From Candidatus Zambryskiibacteriota bacterium (lineage in GTDB: Bacteria; Patescibacteriota; Minisyncoccia; Phycocordibacterales; WO2-35-19), in contig QILQ01000043.1 in NCBI GenBank assembly GCA_003233455.1, forward strand, positions 442 to 64,441: a stretch of DNA of 64,000 nt, in the 5' to 3' direction. The position numbers and the translations under genes are program-made. This document shows positions 16,358 to 63,900 of the stretch, piece after piece. Below the pieces are notes generated by a model. That model worked only from the letters and a program-made list of their open reading frames with translations. It made no database searches and was not told the origin of the DNA. Within the stretch, counting starts at the first letter, position 1. Each line of letters begins with the position of its first letter.

Positions 16358-16648
16358 ATGAAAAATATAGACGAAAAAGAAATACAAAAAACACTTGATG
16401 AAATCAGTAAAAGGACAGAAGAATTTCAATCTGGTGAAAATTATTCTCCAGATAATAAATCTTCTCCTAATCATTTGATGGTAATACTTGCTACTATAGG
16501 AATAATTGTAGTGTTGATTATCGCAACATTTTTTTATAGTAAGGGTAGTGGGTCAAATTCAAAAATAAAAGCTCCAGCTGGATATGAAGTTGTTTATCCA
16601 AAAAATGCCCCTCCTCGTTTACAAAAAAATAATTATGAAAACATCTAA
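16358..16648 (+). CDS. Hypothetical single-pass membrane protein
   Basis: 96 aa with one TM helix. Confidence 0.35.
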   Translation: MKNIDEKEIQKTLDEISKRTEEFQSGENYSPDNKSSPNHLMVILATIGIIVVLIIATFFYSKGSGSNSKIKAPAGYEVVYPKNAPPRLQKNNYENI

Positions 16649-17111
16649 AGGATTTACTTTGATAGAGCTTCTCGTTGTTATCGCTATTATTGGGATACTT
16701 TCATCTATTATTCTTGGGAGTCTTAATAATGCCAGAGCTAGTGCTAGAGATTCAAAAAGAAAGCAAGAAATGATATCTATGCAAACAGCTCTTGAATTGT
16801 ATTATTTTGATAATGGTGTGTATCCTTCAACTAATGGTTCTTGGCGAGGGGCTGTTACATTTGGTAATTATGGAACAGGTGCAACAGGATATATTCCCGG
16901 GTTAGTTCCCAATTATATACCTGTTTTACCGTTAGATCCAAGTGGTACTAATGATGGATATCTCTATCGTTCTAATGGTACTAACTATAAATTGCTTTCA
17001 CATAAAAGTCCGGAGAGTTATCCTGCCCCTGGGACCAAATTTTATGATTCTGCCAGACCCACTTGGGCATGGAAGCTATGTAGTGGAGAACCTGCTTGTA
17101 GTAGTTGGTAA
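16635..17111 (+). CDS. Type IV pilin (prepilin, class III signal peptide)
   Basis: MKTSKGFTLIELLVVIAIIGIL N-terminus; paralog of 50175-50627. Confidence 0.75.
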   Translation: MKTSKGFTLIELLVVIAIIGILSSIILGSLNNARASARDSKRKQEMISMQTALELYYFDNGVYPSTNGSWRGAVTFGNYGTGATGYIPGLVPNYIPVLPLDPSGTNDGYLYRSNGTNYKLLSHKSPESYPAPGTKFYDSARPTWAWKLCSGEPACSSW

Positions 17112-17140
17112 AATTTATGTTGACTTCTTTTTGGAGTTTG
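17110..17140 (+). promoter_or_regulatory. Near-consensus sigma70-type promoter (TTGACT-16-TAATAT), copy 1 of a 31-bp direct repeat (copy 2 at 17526-17556 upstream of tuf)
   Basis: Identical 31-mer ttgacttctttttggagtttgttaatatata at both sites. Confidence 0.5.
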
Positions 17141-17179
17141 TTAATATATATATATATATTGATTTACACTAGAAATATT

Positions 17180-17392
17180 ATGATTAAAACAAAAACAAAA
17201 CTAAATATCACCTTAAAAGAAGCGAGCAGACTTTTTAAAGTTGCTAATAATTTTGCTGATATTTTTGAAGATTTTTTAGAGTCAAAAAAAATGTTTAGTT
17301 CTGAATTTACAAAAGGTTTGCAGACTTCTGTAGAACAAGCAAAATCAGGTCGCCTAAAGAAAATTTCTTCACTCTCAATATTAAAAAATTAA
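17180..17392 (+). CDS. Putative antitoxin-like small protein upstream of degraded RelE/ParE toxin
   Basis: 70-aa ORF; position relative to toxin remnant. Confidence 0.3.
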   Translation: MIKTKTKLNITLKEASRLFKVANNFADIFEDFLESKKMFSSEFTKGLQTSVEQAKSGRLKKISSLSILKN

Positions 17393-17395
17393 AAG

Positions 17396-17509
17396 GATTT
17401 AACCCACCTATATGGAGAGTAAGAATAGGAATTTATAGAATAATTTATTCTTTTGATAAAGATTTTATTATTTGTCTTAGGTTTAGACACAGAAAAGATA
17501 TATACAGAA
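17396..17509 (+). pseudogene. RelE/ParE toxin remnant (C-terminal half only: PIWRVRIGIYRIIYSFDKDFIICLRFRHRKDIYRNL)
   Basis: Clear RelE/ParE C-terminal signature in frame lacking any start; upstream frame blocked by TGA. Confidence 0.45.
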
Positions 17510-17525
17510 ATTTATGAATTTTTAT

Positions 17526-17556
17526 TTGACTTCTTTTTGGAGTTTGTTAATATATA
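17526..17556 (+). promoter_or_regulatory. tuf promoter (TTGACT-16-TAATAT), copy 2 of the 31-bp repeat
   Basis: See 17110-17140. Confidence 0.5.
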
Positions 17557-17641
17557 GACCATTGATAAATAAGCGAGCGGCTTTTATTTTGTCGCGATTT
17601 TAGAAGCTTTAAAAATTAATAATAAATTTAATCAAAATATT

Positions 17642-18844
17642 ATGGCAGAAGAATTTGATCGTTCAAAACCACATGTAAATGTTGGAACAGTCGGCCATGT
17701 TGACCATGGCAAAACCACTTTAACAGCCGCGTTGCTCAAGATTATTGATATGAATAAGGCGGATGGTTATGGGGCTCGTTTGGAAGAAATTGATAGTATT
17801 GATAATGCACCCGAAGAAAAATCTCGCGGTATTACTATTGCTTTGCATCACAGCGAATATTGGACACCGGAAAGACATTACGCTCACATTGACGCTCCGG
17901 GACACGCCGACTATATTAAAAATATGATTACCGGCGCCGCTCAAATGGATGGTGCGATTTTGGTAGTTGCCGCTACGGATGGAGTGATGCCTCAAACCAG
18001 AGAACATATTTTGCTTGCTAAGCAGGTTGGAGTTCCAAAAATAATTGTGTTTCTTAATAAATGCGATATGGTGGCGGACCAAGATTTAATTGATTTGGTG
18101 GAAGAGGAAATTCGCGAGCTTTTGACTAAAAATCAATATGATGGCGCGGCTACCCCCATTATCAGAGGTTCCGCCCTTAAAGCTTTGGAAGCTAATGATA
18201 TGAATGATGAATGGGCTAAAAAAGTTTTTGAACTTGTGAAAACTCTTGATTCTTATATTCCGTTGCCTGTTCGCGAGCTTGATAAACCATTCCTTATGCC
18301 GATTGAAGATATTTTCTCCATTGAAGGCAGGGGAACCGTGGTTACCGGAAAAATTGAAAGAGGAGAAGTAAAAGTGGGTGAAGAAGTGGAAATAATCGGT
18401 CTTAAAGATGCTCAAAAAACAACCGTTACCGGTATTGAAATGTTTAACAAACAACTTAAGGAAGGCAGAGCTGGAGATAATGCCGGTATTTTACTTCGCG
18501 GTCTCAAAAAAGAAGATGTTCATAGAGGTCAAGTAATCGCTAAACCGGGAACTGTTACTCCCCATACCGATTTTGAAGCGGAAGTTTATATCTTGAAAAA
18601 AGAAGAAGGGGGACGACATACACCGTTTTTCACTGGTTACAAACCGCAATTTTACATCAGAACCACTGATGTTACCGGCGAAGTAACTTTGGCTGAAGGA
18701 GTAGAAATGGTAATGCCTGGAGATACCATTACTTTCAAAGTAAAATTAACAGCACCGGTAGCTCTGGAAGAAAAGCAAAAATTTGCTATTCGCGAAGGCG
18801 GTAAAACTGTTGGTGCTGGAGTGGTAACAAAAATAGTAGCTTAA
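17642..18844 (+). CDS. tuf: Elongation factor Tu
   Basis: [23 protein letters not shown]-domain motifs. Confidence 0.95.
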
Positions 18845-19253: not shown

Positions 19254-19568
19254 TTGACAAGATATATACAACATATATACTTCTTATATATGGATACTGT
19301 GATATTTAAAATAGATAAAAAACTTAAACAAGCTGCCCAAAAACAAGCTAAAAAGGGAGGTTTTTCTTTATCTGACTATTATAGATCAGTTACTATTCCT
19401 TTGGCGGAAGGGAAAAGTAGGATTGGTTTAATTCGGGAGGAACAGTTAAATGCAAAAACTGTTCGTGAACTTTTAAAGATTTCAAAAGATATTAAAGAAG
19501 GTAAAAATCTATCTCCTGTTTTTGATAATGTAGAAGATGCTATAAATTATTTAAAATGTGCTAAATGA
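19254..19568 (+). CDS. RelB/DinJ-family antitoxin
   Basis: Paralogous to 34590-34853 and 63330-63635 (shared KDIKEGKN...F.NVEDAINYL C-terminus). Confidence 0.55.
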   Translation: MTRYIQHIYFLYMDTVIFKIDKKLKQAAQKQAKKGGFSLSDYYRSVTIPLAEGKSRIGLIREEQLNAKTVRELLKISKDIKEGKNLSPVFDNVEDAINYLKCAK

Positions 19569-19621
19569 GAATAGATTATCACAGAAGATTTGTTAAAAAT
19601 TTTATTAAATTATTTATATAA
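19565..19621 (+). pseudogene. Truncated YafQ/RelE-type toxin remnant (MRIDYHRRFVKNFIKLFI*)
   Basis: Resembles N-terminus of 63640-63900 toxin; stops after 18 codons. Confidence 0.3.
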
Positions 19622-19684
19622 TAATTTAATAATTCAATAACAAAAAATAATCACATCATCCATAATAATTTTATTTTTTAAGAT

Positions 19685-19735
19685 ACTATACAAATGGGAC
19701 GATCGTCCCGTTTGTATAGTCTGTTTTTTATTTTG
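19685..19735 (+). terminator. Perfect 36-bp palindrome ACTATACAAATGGGACGATCGTCCCGTTTGTATAGT followed by T-tract; second copy at 41672-41706
   Basis: GC core stem + U-run; both copies adjacent to TA cassettes in r-protein operons. Confidence 0.5.
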
Positions 19736-24710: not shown

Positions 24711-24787
24711 GGTGGTAGTAGCTCAGCTAGTAGAGCGCCGCTCTGTGGAAGCGGAGGTCGTGGGGGCAGAACCCATCTACCACCCAT
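24711..24787 (+). tRNA. tRNA-His (anticodon GTG) with G-1:C73; atypical T-loop, no encoded CCA
   Basis: G-1 GTGGTAG acceptor pairs CTACCAC+C73; anticodon stem CCGCT/AGCGG, loop CT-GTG-GA. Confidence 0.55.
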
Positions 24788-33930: not shown

Positions 33931-34188
33931 ATGAAAACTAAAAAGACAAAAAATAATAAAGTAATAAATTTACCTGTACTTATTGAGCAAGATGAAAACG
34001 GGATGTTTGTTGGATCTGTGCCATCTTTACGCTCTTGTTATACTCAAGGTAAAACTCTTGAAGAACTTTATAAAAACCTAGAAGAAGTGGTTGAGCTTTG
34101 TACTGAGGCAGATAAAGAATTTTTTGGAAATAAAATCTATAGCAATAAAATTATAGGATTTCAAAATCTTTCTTTTTCACTTCGTTAA
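33931..34188 (+). CDS. hicB: HicB-family antitoxin
   Basis: IEQDENGMFVGSVPSLRSCYTQGKTLEELYKNLEEVVE matches HicB (UPF0150). Confidence 0.6.
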   Translation: MKTKKTKNNKVINLPVLIEQDENGMFVGSVPSLRSCYTQGKTLEELYKNLEEVVELCTEADKEFFGNKIYSNKIIGFQNLSFSLR

Positions 34189-34415
34189 TGTCACATTTAT
34201 CACCAATTTCACCAAAAAAACTCATAAAACTTTTAAAAAATGAGGGCTTTGTTTGTGTTAAAATAAAAGGAAGTCATCATTTTTTCTTGAATAATATTGA
34301 TAAAAGAACTACTTCTGTACCACTGCACGGTAATAAAGATATTGGGGTGGGACTTTTGCATAAGATTATTAAAGATATAAAAATGTCTGTTGAAAATTTT
34401 AAAAAGAAATTATAA
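34188..34415 (+). CDS. hicA: HicA-family toxin (mRNA interferase)
   Basis: KLLKNEGF...KGSHHFF...TSVPLHGNKDIGVGLLHKIIKDI matches HicA. Confidence 0.6.
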   Translation: MSHLSPISPKKLIKLLKNEGFVCVKIKGSHHFFLNNIDKRTTSVPLHGNKDIGVGLLHKIIKDIKMSVENFKKKL

Positions 34416-34589: not shown

Positions 34590-34853
34590 ATGAAAACTGT
34601 ATTAAATGTAAAAATGCTAAAAAAGGAAGCACAAAAAATTGCCAAAGAGGCTGGTATTCCTCTGAGTCTTGTGGTAGATAATGGATTGAGAAAATTTGTA
34701 GCTCGCAGAGCAATTACCGTTGAAGCGCCACTTATTCCAAATGCAAAAACTGCCAAGATTTTGGATAGAGTTTTGAAAGATATCAAAGAGGGAAAAAATA
34801 TTGAAGGACCATTCTATTCTGTAGAGGAATTTATGAAAGGTCTTAAATCCTAG
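34590..34853 (+). CDS. RelB/DinJ-family antitoxin
   Basis: Paralog of 19254 and 63330 ORFs. Confidence 0.55.
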   Translation: MKTVLNVKMLKKEAQKIAKEAGIPLSLVVDNGLRKFVARRAITVEAPLIPNAKTAKILDRVLKDIKEGKNIEGPFYSVEEFMKGLKS

Positions 34854-34862
34854 CTTTGAATT

Positions 34863-35126
34863 ATGTTGCTCGTTTACAGGCACAAAAAATTTTCTAAGGA
34901 ATTTAAGAAGCTTCTTAGGGTTGTTCAAGAAAAATTTGAGCAAAAAATAGGAATTTTTGTCATAGATCAGTATTCGGTTGGATTTAATAACCATGGTCTA
35001 AAAAGGAAATATAACGGTTGTAGGAGTATTGATATTACTGGAGATTATAGGGCAATATATTACATAAATAACAGTATTGCAATTTTTATCCATATAGGCA
35101 CTCATCATCAGCTTTATGGAAAATAA
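34863..35126 (+). CDS. YafQ/RelE-family toxin
   Basis: C-terminal IHIGTHHQLY (GTHSDLF-like); paralog of 63640-63900. Confidence 0.6.
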   Translation: MLLVYRHKKFSKEFKKLLRVVQEKFEQKIGIFVIDQYSVGFNNHGLKRKYNGCRSIDITGDYRAIYYINNSIAIFIHIGTHHQLYGK

Positions 35127-43648: not shown

Positions 43649-43903
43649 ATGAATCAAATAACATTTACAGCAAAAGAAGCAAAAAATAATTTTGGTAGGC
43701 TTTTAGATGAAGCTCGTCGTTCTCCTGTGGCTATAAACAAAAACGGCAGAAAAGTTGCTTTTGTGGTTTCTTATGAAGATTTTTCTCAATTTGAAGGAAT
43801 GGTAGATTCTTATTGGGGCAAAAAAGCTAAAACGGCAATAAAAAAAGGATATCTGACTGTTGCTGAAAGTAAAAAATTTGTAGATTCTATTTTAAATGCT
43901 TAA
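43649..43903 (+). CDS. Phd/YefM-family antitoxin
   Basis: N-terminal ITFTAKEAKNNFGRLLDEARRSPVAINKNGRKVAFVVSYEDF typical of Phd/YefM. Confidence 0.55.
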   Translation: MNQITFTAKEAKNNFGRLLDEARRSPVAINKNGRKVAFVVSYEDFSQFEGMVDSYWGKKAKTAIKKGYLTVAESKKFVDSILNA

Positions 43904-44168
43904 TATTAGATTTTCAAAATTATCAAAGAAATTTGTAGAAAGAGTTCCAATAAAACACAGAAGACAAATTGTTGAAAAATCTGTAAGTCTAAAAAATAAT
44001 CCTCTACCTTCGGATAGTAGGGCTATGAAGGGATTTCCGGGTTATTTTCGTGTTGATATTGGGGAATATAGGATTATTTATACAATTTCAGAATCTAAAA
44101 TAAATATTGAACTAATTGGTAAAAGAAACGACGACGAAGTTTATCGTAAATTTAAAAGACTTATGTGA
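43896..44168 (+). CDS. RelE/ParE-family toxin
   Basis: GYFRVDIGEYRIIYTI...IELIGKRNDDEVY; 8-nt overlap with antitoxin. Confidence 0.65.
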   Translation: MLNIRFSKLSKKFVERVPIKHRRQIVEKSVSLKNNPLPSDSRAMKGFPGYFRVDIGEYRIIYTISESKINIELIGKRNDDEVYRKFKRLM

Positions 44169-63329: not shown

Positions 63330-63635
63330 TTGACAATACCTACCATATGTATATACTTGTGGTATATGAAAATACAAGTCAATTTAAAAATAGATAATAG
63401 TGTTAAAAAACAAGCTCAAAAAAGAGCTAAAAACATAGGTCTCTCTCTTAGCTCTATTGTTAATGCTACTTTAAAACAGTTTGCTAAAACTGGAGAACTT
63501 GAATTATCTTCTGCTCCTAAAATGACTCCTTATCTTGAAAAATTAGTTTTTGAAGCTAGAAAAGAATATTTAAAAGGTAAGACTTATGGTCCGTTTGATA
63601 ATGTTAAGGATTTAATGAAGCATTTAAATTCTTGA
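63330..63635 (+). CDS. RelB/DinJ-family antitoxin
   Basis: KIQVNLKIDNSVKKQAQKRAKNIGLSLSSIVNATLKQF matches DinJ; paralog of 19254 and 34590. Confidence 0.55.
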   Translation: MTIPTICIYLWYMKIQVNLKIDNSVKKQAQKRAKNIGLSLSSIVNATLKQFAKTGELELSSAPKMTPYLEKLVFEARKEYLKGKTYGPFDNVKDLMKHLNS

Positions 63636-63639
63636 TTAT

Positions 63640-63900
63640 ATGAGGATTATTACTACCACAAAGTTTGATAAACAATTTAGAAAACAACCTTTAAAAATTA
63701 AAATAGAATTTGAAAATAGAGTTGAGATATTCATAGAAAATGTAAACGCTCCAATTCTTAACACTCATAAATTGTCTGGAAAATTGAAAGATTTATGGAG
63801 TTTCAATATAAGTGGAAATATTAGAGTTGTTTTTGATAAAAACCAAGAAAGTATAATTATATTTATTGCCATTGGTTCTCATTCGCAACTCTATAATTAG
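63640..63900 (+). CDS. YafQ/RelE-family toxin
   Basis: C-terminal IFIAIGSHSQLY. Confidence 0.6.
   Translation: MRIITTTKFDKQFRKQPLKIKIEFENRVEIFIENVNAPILNTHKLSGKLKDLWSFNISGNIRVVFDKNQESIIIFIAIGSHSQLYN

Follow-up and report, generated by a model that had tools for sequence, protein, structure and literature searches.

A toxin–antitoxin remnant apparently inserted into, and duplicating, the tuf promoter of an ultra-small bacterium

Why should the promoter of an essential gene be present in two identical copies, with a broken toxin–antitoxin (TA) pair between them? The tuf locus of a Candidatus Zambryskiibacteriota bacterium raises this question. It was analyzed here in a stretch of 64,000 nucleotides (hereafter the window) of contig QILQ01000043.1, a metagenome contig from JGI sample 3300020233. 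A first-pass annotation made from the letters alone had proposed that a degraded RelE/ParE cassette was inserted in front of tuf. Comparison with related genomes makes it probable that the remnant of a two-gene type II TA module lies inserted inside the tuf promoter (Ptuf) of this ultra-small member of the Paceibacteria, in the Candidate Phyla Radiation (CPR), and that the promoter was duplicated in the process. At the level of sequence, the alignments show a duplicated target, ancestral outer junctions and one deletion that killed the toxin.

The promoter repeat and its junctions

The repeat is an exact 31-mer, TTGACTTCTTTTTGGAGTTTGTTAATATATA, present in two copies on the plus strand, 406 bp apart. 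No third copy was found in the window with up to three mismatches allowed, and none of 100 dinucleotide-preserving shuffles contained any match. The first-pass annotation had reported this identical pair and placed its second member correctly, at 17526; the first member had been put at 17110 and actually starts 10 nt higher, at 17120. The same annotation had described the repeat as a -35/-10 consensus promoter, and a consensus scan agrees, reading TTGACT (-35), a 16-nt spacer and TAATAT (-10) with the TG of an extended -10, a layout of sigma-70 type. The spacing falls within the 16–18 nt of such promoters, and the position is fixed, equivalents being found in 13 relatives at an unchanged distance from both the ATG and the leader hairpin. 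Identity between the copies stops on the right, where a (TA)8 run follows copy 1 and GACC follows copy 2, after which a short ATTGAT occurs in both; on the left, TTTAT is common to both copies, with a 1-nt indel. The repeat may therefore be a few bases longer on either side (TTTAT, ATTGAT), these extensions being short and ambiguous.

Relatives of the locus were fetched in two ways, via the neighboring DUF5663 gene, in metagenome-assembled genomes of Zambryskibacteria, Paceibacterota and Parcubacteria, and via the promoter pattern. The latter gave eight metagenome matches, four of which lay in unrelated contexts (L013, L014, L019 and, in part, the surroundings of L020) and were left aside. In seven relatives (L005, L006, L007, L008, L009, L011 and L018) the site is empty and consists of DUF5663, ~95 nt with the promoter, and tuf. 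In several of them the DUF5663 stop TGA falls within the -35 TTGACA; across the clade, the upstream gene has its stop codon either next to the tuf promoter or within it, leaving hardly any free intergenic DNA. Elsewhere the interval between the DUF5663 stop and the -35 of Ptuf is occupied by various material: a ~110-bp palindromic insert in L004, ~400 bp in L015/L016, 1.6 kb in L020, a Phd/PemK TA pair in L017, a membrane-protein gene with a DUF2683/RelE pair in L003 and, in the window, TM96, a pilin-like gene and the TA remnant.

The evidence that carries the argument comes from L024, which holds no TA cassette and reads DUF5663, TM94, pilin, TGGTAA AAAAT TTGACTTCTTTTTGG..., leader and tuf. 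It aligns to both junctions of the window, on the left through the pilin 3' end, its stop and the promoter, and on the right through the promoter, ATTGATAAA and the leader hairpin. Because L024 matches both, copy 1 occupies the ancestral promoter position and copy 2 sits on the ancestral leader; with both outer junctions ancestral, it is within a duplicated promoter that the antitoxin/toxin segment lies. The earlier proposals of an insertion ahead of tuf and of a borrowed tuf promoter are thus borne out by the cassette-free relatives, the seven empty sites as well as L024. Orthologues of the pilin (75–77% identity) stand directly upstream of the tuf promoter in both L024 and L025. In the window the pilin stop TAA (17109–17111) lies 8 nt 5' of copy 1, which adjoins it and now has the antitoxin gene downstream. 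Copy 2 is orthologous to the tuf-upstream promoter of L003, L004, L016, L017, L018, L020, L024 and L025 and is the predicted working promoter of tuf, whose protein is 87–93% identical in amino acids to those of relatives.

The reach of the duplication is marked by the stem-loop of the tuf leader, which is present after copy 2 and missing after copy 1. All relatives (L003–L025) carry such a hairpin ~20 nt past the -10, with a 5–6-bp GC stem and a U-rich loop of 9–10 nt. Its stem sequence varies by lineage with pairing kept (GCGGC/GUCGC, GGGGCG/CGCCCC, GCAGG/CCTGC, AGCGC/GCGCU). No Rfam family matched the hairpin. RNAalifold returned no structure from a MAFFT alignment of the tuf leaders because the 3' arms were misaligned, and single-sequence folds were used instead.

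As to how the cassette arrived, integration would have proceeded by recombination within the promoter, either as a long target duplication or through an excised circle carrying one promoter copy, with the crossover at a conserved core. The most conserved stretch of the promoter is a 12-bp -35-proximal core, TTGACTTCTTTT, which begins both copies and has no other exact occurrence in the window; among all loci fetched it was seen only at Ptuf and at the cassette flanks described below. Pfam searches found no integrase or transposase family in the unit or among genes within ±4 kb of it, and a search of the insert ends for terminal inverted repeats or an attC-like palindrome gave only low-complexity TA-rich matches (I7, 78% complementary, 18 nt). 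The only survivors would be insertions that rebuild both the end of the upstream gene and the tuf promoter, a filter that would explain landing at exactly one point in a genome without spare intergenic DNA. Copy 1 today probably transcribes the orphan antitoxin. A scan of 16500–18000 found no terminator-like site, so that transcription from copy 1 probably runs on into tuf, which would then have tandem promoters. An Rfam search of 17000–17700 found no known RNA, an isrF match being at chance level only.

Features of the tuf-upstream region, in coordinates of the window
Feature	Position	Strand	Basis or remark
Type IV pilin-like gene, 158 aa, left flank of insertion	16635–17111	+	Pfam N_methyl and T2SSG
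Promoter copy 1	17120–17150	+	Exact repeat; consensus scan; left flank aligns with the L024 pilin–Ptuf junction
(TA)8 run, right edge of copy 1	17145–17160		Read from sequence and copy–copy alignments
Antitoxin gene, 70 aa, DUF2683-like, intact	17180–17392	+	ATG start; open reading frame listing
Deletion junction	17370/17371 (±2 nt)		DNA alignment with L021 and L022; protein alignment
RelE/ParE toxin remnant, codons ~40–87 of 87	17371–17517	+	Native stop TGA 17515–17517
Promoter copy 2	17526–17556	+	Exact repeat; contiguous with conserved tuf leader
Stem-loop GCGGC-UUUUAUUUU-GUCGC in tuf 5' leader	17577–17595	+	Single-sequence folds, 13 relatives
tuf (EF-Tu, 400 aa); rpsJ and the S10 operon come next	17642–18844	+	Pfam families on contig

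A broken toxin and an orphan antitoxin

What lies between the promoter copies had been read earlier as an antitoxin-like open reading frame (ORF) followed by a decayed toxin fragment with a C-terminal signature and neither N-terminus nor start, a description that holds in each part. The toxin remnant comprises the last 47–48 codons of an 87-aa toxin, lacks a start codon and ribosome-binding region, and is out of the antitoxin frame; its own open frame ends ...LNIKKLKGFNPPIWRVRIGIYRIIYSFDKDFIICLRFRHRKDIYRNL at the stop. It matches Pfam ParE_toxin PF05016 with 25.9 bits (curated cut-off 23, E=1.5e-5), over profile positions 52–89 of 89 only, and is 73–76% identical to intact toxins across the retained part. 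No ORF of at least 25 aa starting with ATG, GTG or TTG appears in its frame in the ORF listing, and it falls short of a complete PF05016 domain, which comprises ~85–90 aa, N-terminal helices included, encoded by a single ORF that has a start codon. The remnant is accordingly annotated as a pseudogene fragment, not a functional member of the family, and is probably not translated. The C-terminal RHRKDIYR we take to resemble the basic/Tyr catalytic end of RelE-type toxins. Known activities in the superfamily are ribosome-dependent mRNA cleavage (RelE) and gyrase poisoning (ParE).

The loss can be traced to one event. Against the intact cassettes of L021 (87-aa toxin) and L022 (86-aa toxin), whose toxins align with the remnant from residue ~40 through the C-terminus, the DNA of the window shows a single gap of ~142 nt, with no scattered frameshifts. 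The gap removes the final ~4 codons and stop of the antitoxin, the ~10-nt spacer, the toxin start and toxin codons 1–40. Frame correction recovers no full-length toxin, which means that the toxin is truly truncated; it was inactivated by this single deletion. As 142 is not a multiple of three, no antitoxin–toxin fusion protein results. A heptamer A_AAA_AAT at 17383–17389, just 5' of the antitoxin stop, is placed such that a -1 slip would enter the remnant frame; it is treated as chance, since its A-run derives from the KKLK codons of the toxin gene.

The deletion has also given the antitoxin a new end. Its last six residues, L65–N70, are encoded by toxin-derived DNA in another frame: the C-terminus reads ...KKISS-LSILKN, where the underlying toxin DNA originally reads T-LNIKKL. 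This tail restores the leucines L65 and L68 that are near-invariant at the C-terminus of the family (S-L-x-x-L motif), and the restoration is due either to chance or to selection. As a side reading, retention of the orphan antitoxin behind a tuf-type promoter may be purposeful, serving anti-addiction or immunity should the same cassette re-invade.

The assignment of the small ORF as the antitoxin partner relies on position, because its homologues sit directly 5' of ParE/RelE ORFs. Homologues followed within ~10–15 nt by an 86–87-aa ParE/RelE ORF are found in L003, L021, L022, L023 (partial) and the P0006 contig. A word-indexed search with the antitoxin gave one relative, and the family was delimited instead by an exhaustive HMMER search of a library of 1.84 billion proteins, with an alignment of the window antitoxin and its single close relative as query; it comprises 77 representatives of ~70 aa. 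The closest homologue, P0002 (62% identity), is encoded upstream of tuf in L003. The window protein matches PF10884 (DUF2683) weakly, at 14.1 bits against a gathering cut-off of 27 (E=0.059); 26 of the 46 HMMER-detected homologues scanned match the family at E<=0.01, the best at 1.3e-6. For annotation, a DUF2683-type antitoxin is the probable identity. Among PDB sequences, a profile search turned up no solved structure related to the antitoxin family, exact-protein look-ups of tuf and the antitoxin gave no match beyond the source contig, and in the literature searched the only mention of DUF2683 was in a fold-assignment survey.

The window contains further TA loci. A second degraded pair lies at 19290–19720, between rpsJ and rplC, where an antitoxin-like ORF (19290–19568, 92 aa) is intact and the toxin is reduced to an ATG-started ORF at 19566–19622, reading MRIDYHRRFVKNFIKLFI up to its stop, plus decayed DNA. 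In L003, L004, L005, L007 and L020 the orthologous toxin, of ParE/YafQ type and 85 aa long, is intact. A strong terminator hairpin with a T-run (19685–19720) follows this second remnant, 5' of the rplC promoter. At least five more TA pairs or toxins appear intact (1019–1273, 33931–34415, 34590–35126, 43649–44168 and 63330–63900), the set including a ParE-like toxin, HicB/HicA, two YafQ-like pairs and a Phd/ParE pair. This density of TA loci is very high for a small genome. Apart from these, an Rfam tRNA (51.6 bits) was found at 24712–24784, which is not in the ARAGORN list.

Recurrence at Ptuf and competing explanations

The same few bases have received another cassette elsewhere in the clade. 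In L017 the DUF5663 stop is followed by TAGTGGCATTTTTGTA, TTGACTTCTTTT and GGGGGGTTTGCTAAT..., then by genes for a Phd-like antitoxin and a PemK toxin, and then by ...GAT, TTGACTTCTTTT and AAGAGTTTGTTAGTATATG... leading to tuf. The empty site of L018, whose tuf is 96% identical to that of L017 in nucleotides, has a single TAGTGGCATTTTTGTA-TTGACTTCTTTT-AAGAGTTTGTTAGTATATG. On alignment, L017 (filled) and L018 (empty) form a clean pair, the insert being flanked by a repeat of 12 bp. A Phd/YefM–PemK/MazF cassette with TTGACTTCTTTT on both sides is present in L017 (2036–2708) and L025 (3082–3691). The cassette of L025/L026, assembled from two separate samples, is ~84% identical to that of L017 over ~650 bp; homology begins and ends at TTGACTTCTTTT, and the outer flanks differ. 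In both L017 and L025 the PemK stop TGA lies inside the -35. A tandem repeat, GTATGCCTAA, occurs four times between the Phd and PemK genes of L017 and is absent from L025. In L025 the core is present three times, a 116-bp block of pilin end, 66-bp palindrome resembling a MITE (miniature inverted-repeat transposable element) and promoter being duplicated at 93% identity. Judged from these comparisons, promoter-duplicating insertion recurs in the clade with a second, unrelated TA family.

Two further observations concern the same interval. Upstream of tuf in L025 (2258–4585), two divergent TM–pilin modules are stacked, their pilins 35% identical, with the PemK cassette between them. Two unrelated MITE-like palindromes, one of ~110 bp (L004 6312–6405) and one of 66 bp (L025 3005–3081 and 4485–4557), lie exactly in the -35 of Ptuf, with TTGA(C) duplicated; both the end of the upstream gene and the promoter are preserved at these inserts.

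The RelE family of the window has likewise been found in several places. A DUF2683/RelE cassette lies directly upstream of the tuf promoter of L003, whose tuf is 78% identical to that of the window in nucleotides, another in L022 directly upstream of rplC, where TTGACTT comes a few bases past the toxin stop, and a third in an unrelated context in L021. By these placements the cassette is mobile and settles repeatedly just 5' of the promoters of translation genes. The nearest tuf relatives of the window, L017 and L018 (84% in nucleotides), do not carry it, which makes independent acquisition more likely than deep shared ancestry, weakly so because the tuf tree is shallow and saturated. The RelE gene of L003 (2850–2960) contains a run of ten N and a 28-residue stretch found in no homologue, probably a scaffolding gap or misjoin in the public assembly.

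It is tempting to go further and view TTGACTTCTTTT as a shared landing site, at which TA cassettes without a recombinase of their own excise as hybrid-promoter circles, move between hosts and re-integrate by recombination within the promoter of an essential gene with high expression, namely tuf and perhaps rplC; this extension is possible, though we hold it tentatively. It draws on the upstream promoter copy of L017, whose -10 half is of the native Ptuf type of L025 (GGGGG), not of the L017/L018 type (AAGAG), so that the PemK cassette seems to have carried half a promoter from its previous host. Such a foreign half would be expected if a circle with one promoter copy integrated by crossover in the shared core. 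If the idea is true, integration gives the cassette a strong promoter and leaves the host precise loss as its only safe exit.

Several points weigh against insertion with promoter duplication as the account of the window. The comparator L024 is a different species (tuf ~79% nucleotide identity), and a strain-level empty site for the RelE cassette was not found among the relatives fetched. For both copies, the case for being a promoter and for being active rests on consensus, position and conservation, and the window itself is a metagenome assembly. The two copies match at 31 of 31 positions, yet orthologous promoters differ at ~5 of 31, which requires a recent event or gene conversion. Duplication lengths differ from case to case (12, 31 and 116 bp), so a mechanism common to all of them is not a given. 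Finally, L003 has the cassette family without a recognizable full promoter copy upstream: a broad Smith–Waterman search of its antitoxin-upstream region for a decayed copy was not significant, 119 of 1000 shuffles reaching the score, so that duplication at insertion is not visible in every case. A more restricted test did find an exact 11-mer, TTTGTTATGAT, common to that region and the -10 of L003 Ptuf (reached by 62 of 5000 shuffles), which is suggestive.

The L003 case and the perfect identity of the window copies lend themselves to the opposite order of events, in which the cassette was resident first with its own promoter, as in L003, and ~35–50 bp of Ptuf were later copied over the native promoter, whether by ectopic gene conversion, by template switching, or by a tandem duplication with a subsequent deletion, the duplication then being secondary. 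L003 has the same placement with only an 11-nt Ptuf match upstream of the antitoxin, and identical copies amid diverged orthologous promoters point to a recent event. A possible match to the last codons of the toxin just left of copy 1, AAATTTATG, would also fit; TTTAT with one gapped nucleotide aligns there just as well, and its interpretation as a toxin 3'-end remnant of a tandem duplication was dropped, as L024 explains this flank. What makes this sequence of events improbable in our judgement is the left flank of copy 1, which is the pilin-stop/promoter junction of L024 and L025 and hence the ancestral position. L017/L018 moreover show a clean insertion of another cassette with flanking repeats at the same site, and L003 is distant, with the nearest relatives of the window cassette-free, so that shared ancestry of its insertion is doubtful.

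Somewhat less improbable, and still unlikely, is a site-specific recombinase or transposase acting in trans, for which TTGACTTCTTTT would be the attachment (att) or target site and the repeats att cores or a 12-bp target-site duplication. The same core delimits the PemK cassette in two genomes whose outer flanks differ and begins both copies in the window, two different MITE-like elements entered the same -35 with TTGA(C) duplicated, and the foreign -10 half in L017 is as expected for a circle with one att site moving between hosts. Against such an enzyme stand the absence of any recombinase or transposase gene from the cassette and from ±4 kb around it, and the lack of terminal inverted repeats beyond the low-complexity TA matches. 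Repeat lengths of 12, 31 and 116 bp fit a variable long target duplication or short-homology recombination better, and the core is the longest stretch common to the diverged promoter alleles, so homology-guided crossovers would map there in any event. Survivorship alone can explain the site preference, as an insertion is viable only if the promoter is rebuilt. An assembly artefact, in which strain variants pilin–promoter–tuf and a second one with the antitoxin and truncated toxin before promoter and tuf were joined through the 31-mer, is the remotest of the explanations considered. The sequence is a metagenome contig whose JGI and NCBI records come from one sample and are not independent, and the site is polymorphic among relatives. 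The final k-mers of current metagenome assemblers are, however, longer than 31 bp, and the repeat, shorter than reads, produces no false join by itself. A false join would still need a strain with a promoter copy directly 5' of the antitoxin, in itself the very observation at issue, and the promoter–cassette–promoter arrangement is also present in independent assemblies, L017 and, from two samples, L025/L026. Insertion into the promoter with duplication of the target remains the reading that we favor.

Relation to known systems

The dead cassette is in itself ordinary. Mobility is a known property of type II TA modules, and bacterial chromosomes commonly hold orphan antitoxins and other remnants of degraded TA loci. 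The novelty, a moderate one, lies in the repeated insertion of unrelated TA cassettes at Ptuf together with duplication of the promoter; no account of TA cassettes in either tuf promoters or the ribosomal operons of the CPR was found in a limited library, which is weak evidence. The movement of bare two-gene cassettes without a recombinase of their own is poorly documented, and the locus and its relatives offer before-and-after pairs at the level of sequence for two unrelated TA families at the same few bases of an essential promoter. They also suggest a rule for very compact genomes, by which an insertion survives only by rebuilding the stop codon and the promoter of its neighbors, and illustrate how a selfish cassette may co-opt a housekeeping promoter and leave its host with tandem tuf promoters and an orphan antitoxin.

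In organization the cassette resembles type II RelE/ParE modules (PF05016 with a PF10884-like antitoxin). In intact homologues the antitoxin (70 aa) precedes the toxin (87 aa) by ~10 nt, the C-terminal half of the toxin bears the signature ...WRVRIG.YR.IY...RHRKDIYR, and the same pairing occurs at no fewer than five other loci. It departs from them in that the window toxin is startless and retains residues ~40–87 only, the antitoxin scores below the Pfam threshold, and a housekeeping promoter, in copy, stands where TA modules usually have an autoregulated one. With orphan antitoxins and degraded TA loci it shares the lost toxin and the kept antitoxin ORF, of which a second example lies 2 kb downstream; what sets it apart is a single clean deletion that recreates the C-terminal S-L-x-x-L and the position of the orphan under a tuf-promoter copy.

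Among mobile elements, integron cassettes, small promoter-poor units that often carry TA genes in chromosomal integrons, share the dependence on an outside promoter, and MITEs and insertion sequences (IS) share the short target duplications seen at the two MITE-like inserts in the same -35. Unlike integron, IS and MITE insertions, the window cassette has no attC-like palindrome, terminal inverted repeats, nearby integrase or array structure. Integron, IS and MITE models were each considered and left unsupported, with no attC or inverted repeats at the ends and no integrase nearby.

The closest parallel is the insertion with long target duplication described for restriction–modification units, which lack mobility genes and have on either side direct repeats, longer than 30 bp, that are present as a single copy in the empty-site genome (PMC2853133). 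These repeats may overlap the 3' end of a neighboring gene, as with the 46-bp repeats of H. influenzae (Furuta, Abe, Kobayashi 2010, PMC2853133); the terms 'toxin-antitoxin' and 'promoter' do not occur in the text of that paper (PMC2853133). The window unit, without a mobility gene, measures 406 bp now and ~548 bp before the deletion, well within the small size (<20 kb) of such units. Its exact repeats, at 31 bp, barely exceed 30 bp; in the related cases they measure 12 bp in L017 and, at 93% identity, 116 bp in L025. A single copy with aligned outer flanks in an insert-free genome is provided by L024, a different species with a tuf 79% identical in nucleotides, and at strain level, for the PemK cassette, by the L018/L017 pair. 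Two features distinguish the insertions at Ptuf from those of restriction–modification units: the duplicated target is a core promoter, which would arm the cassette while preserving the promoter of an essential gene, and the same target has been struck repeatedly by different cassettes. If insertion into the promoter is the correct reading, it extends insertion with long target duplication from restriction–modification units to TA modules.

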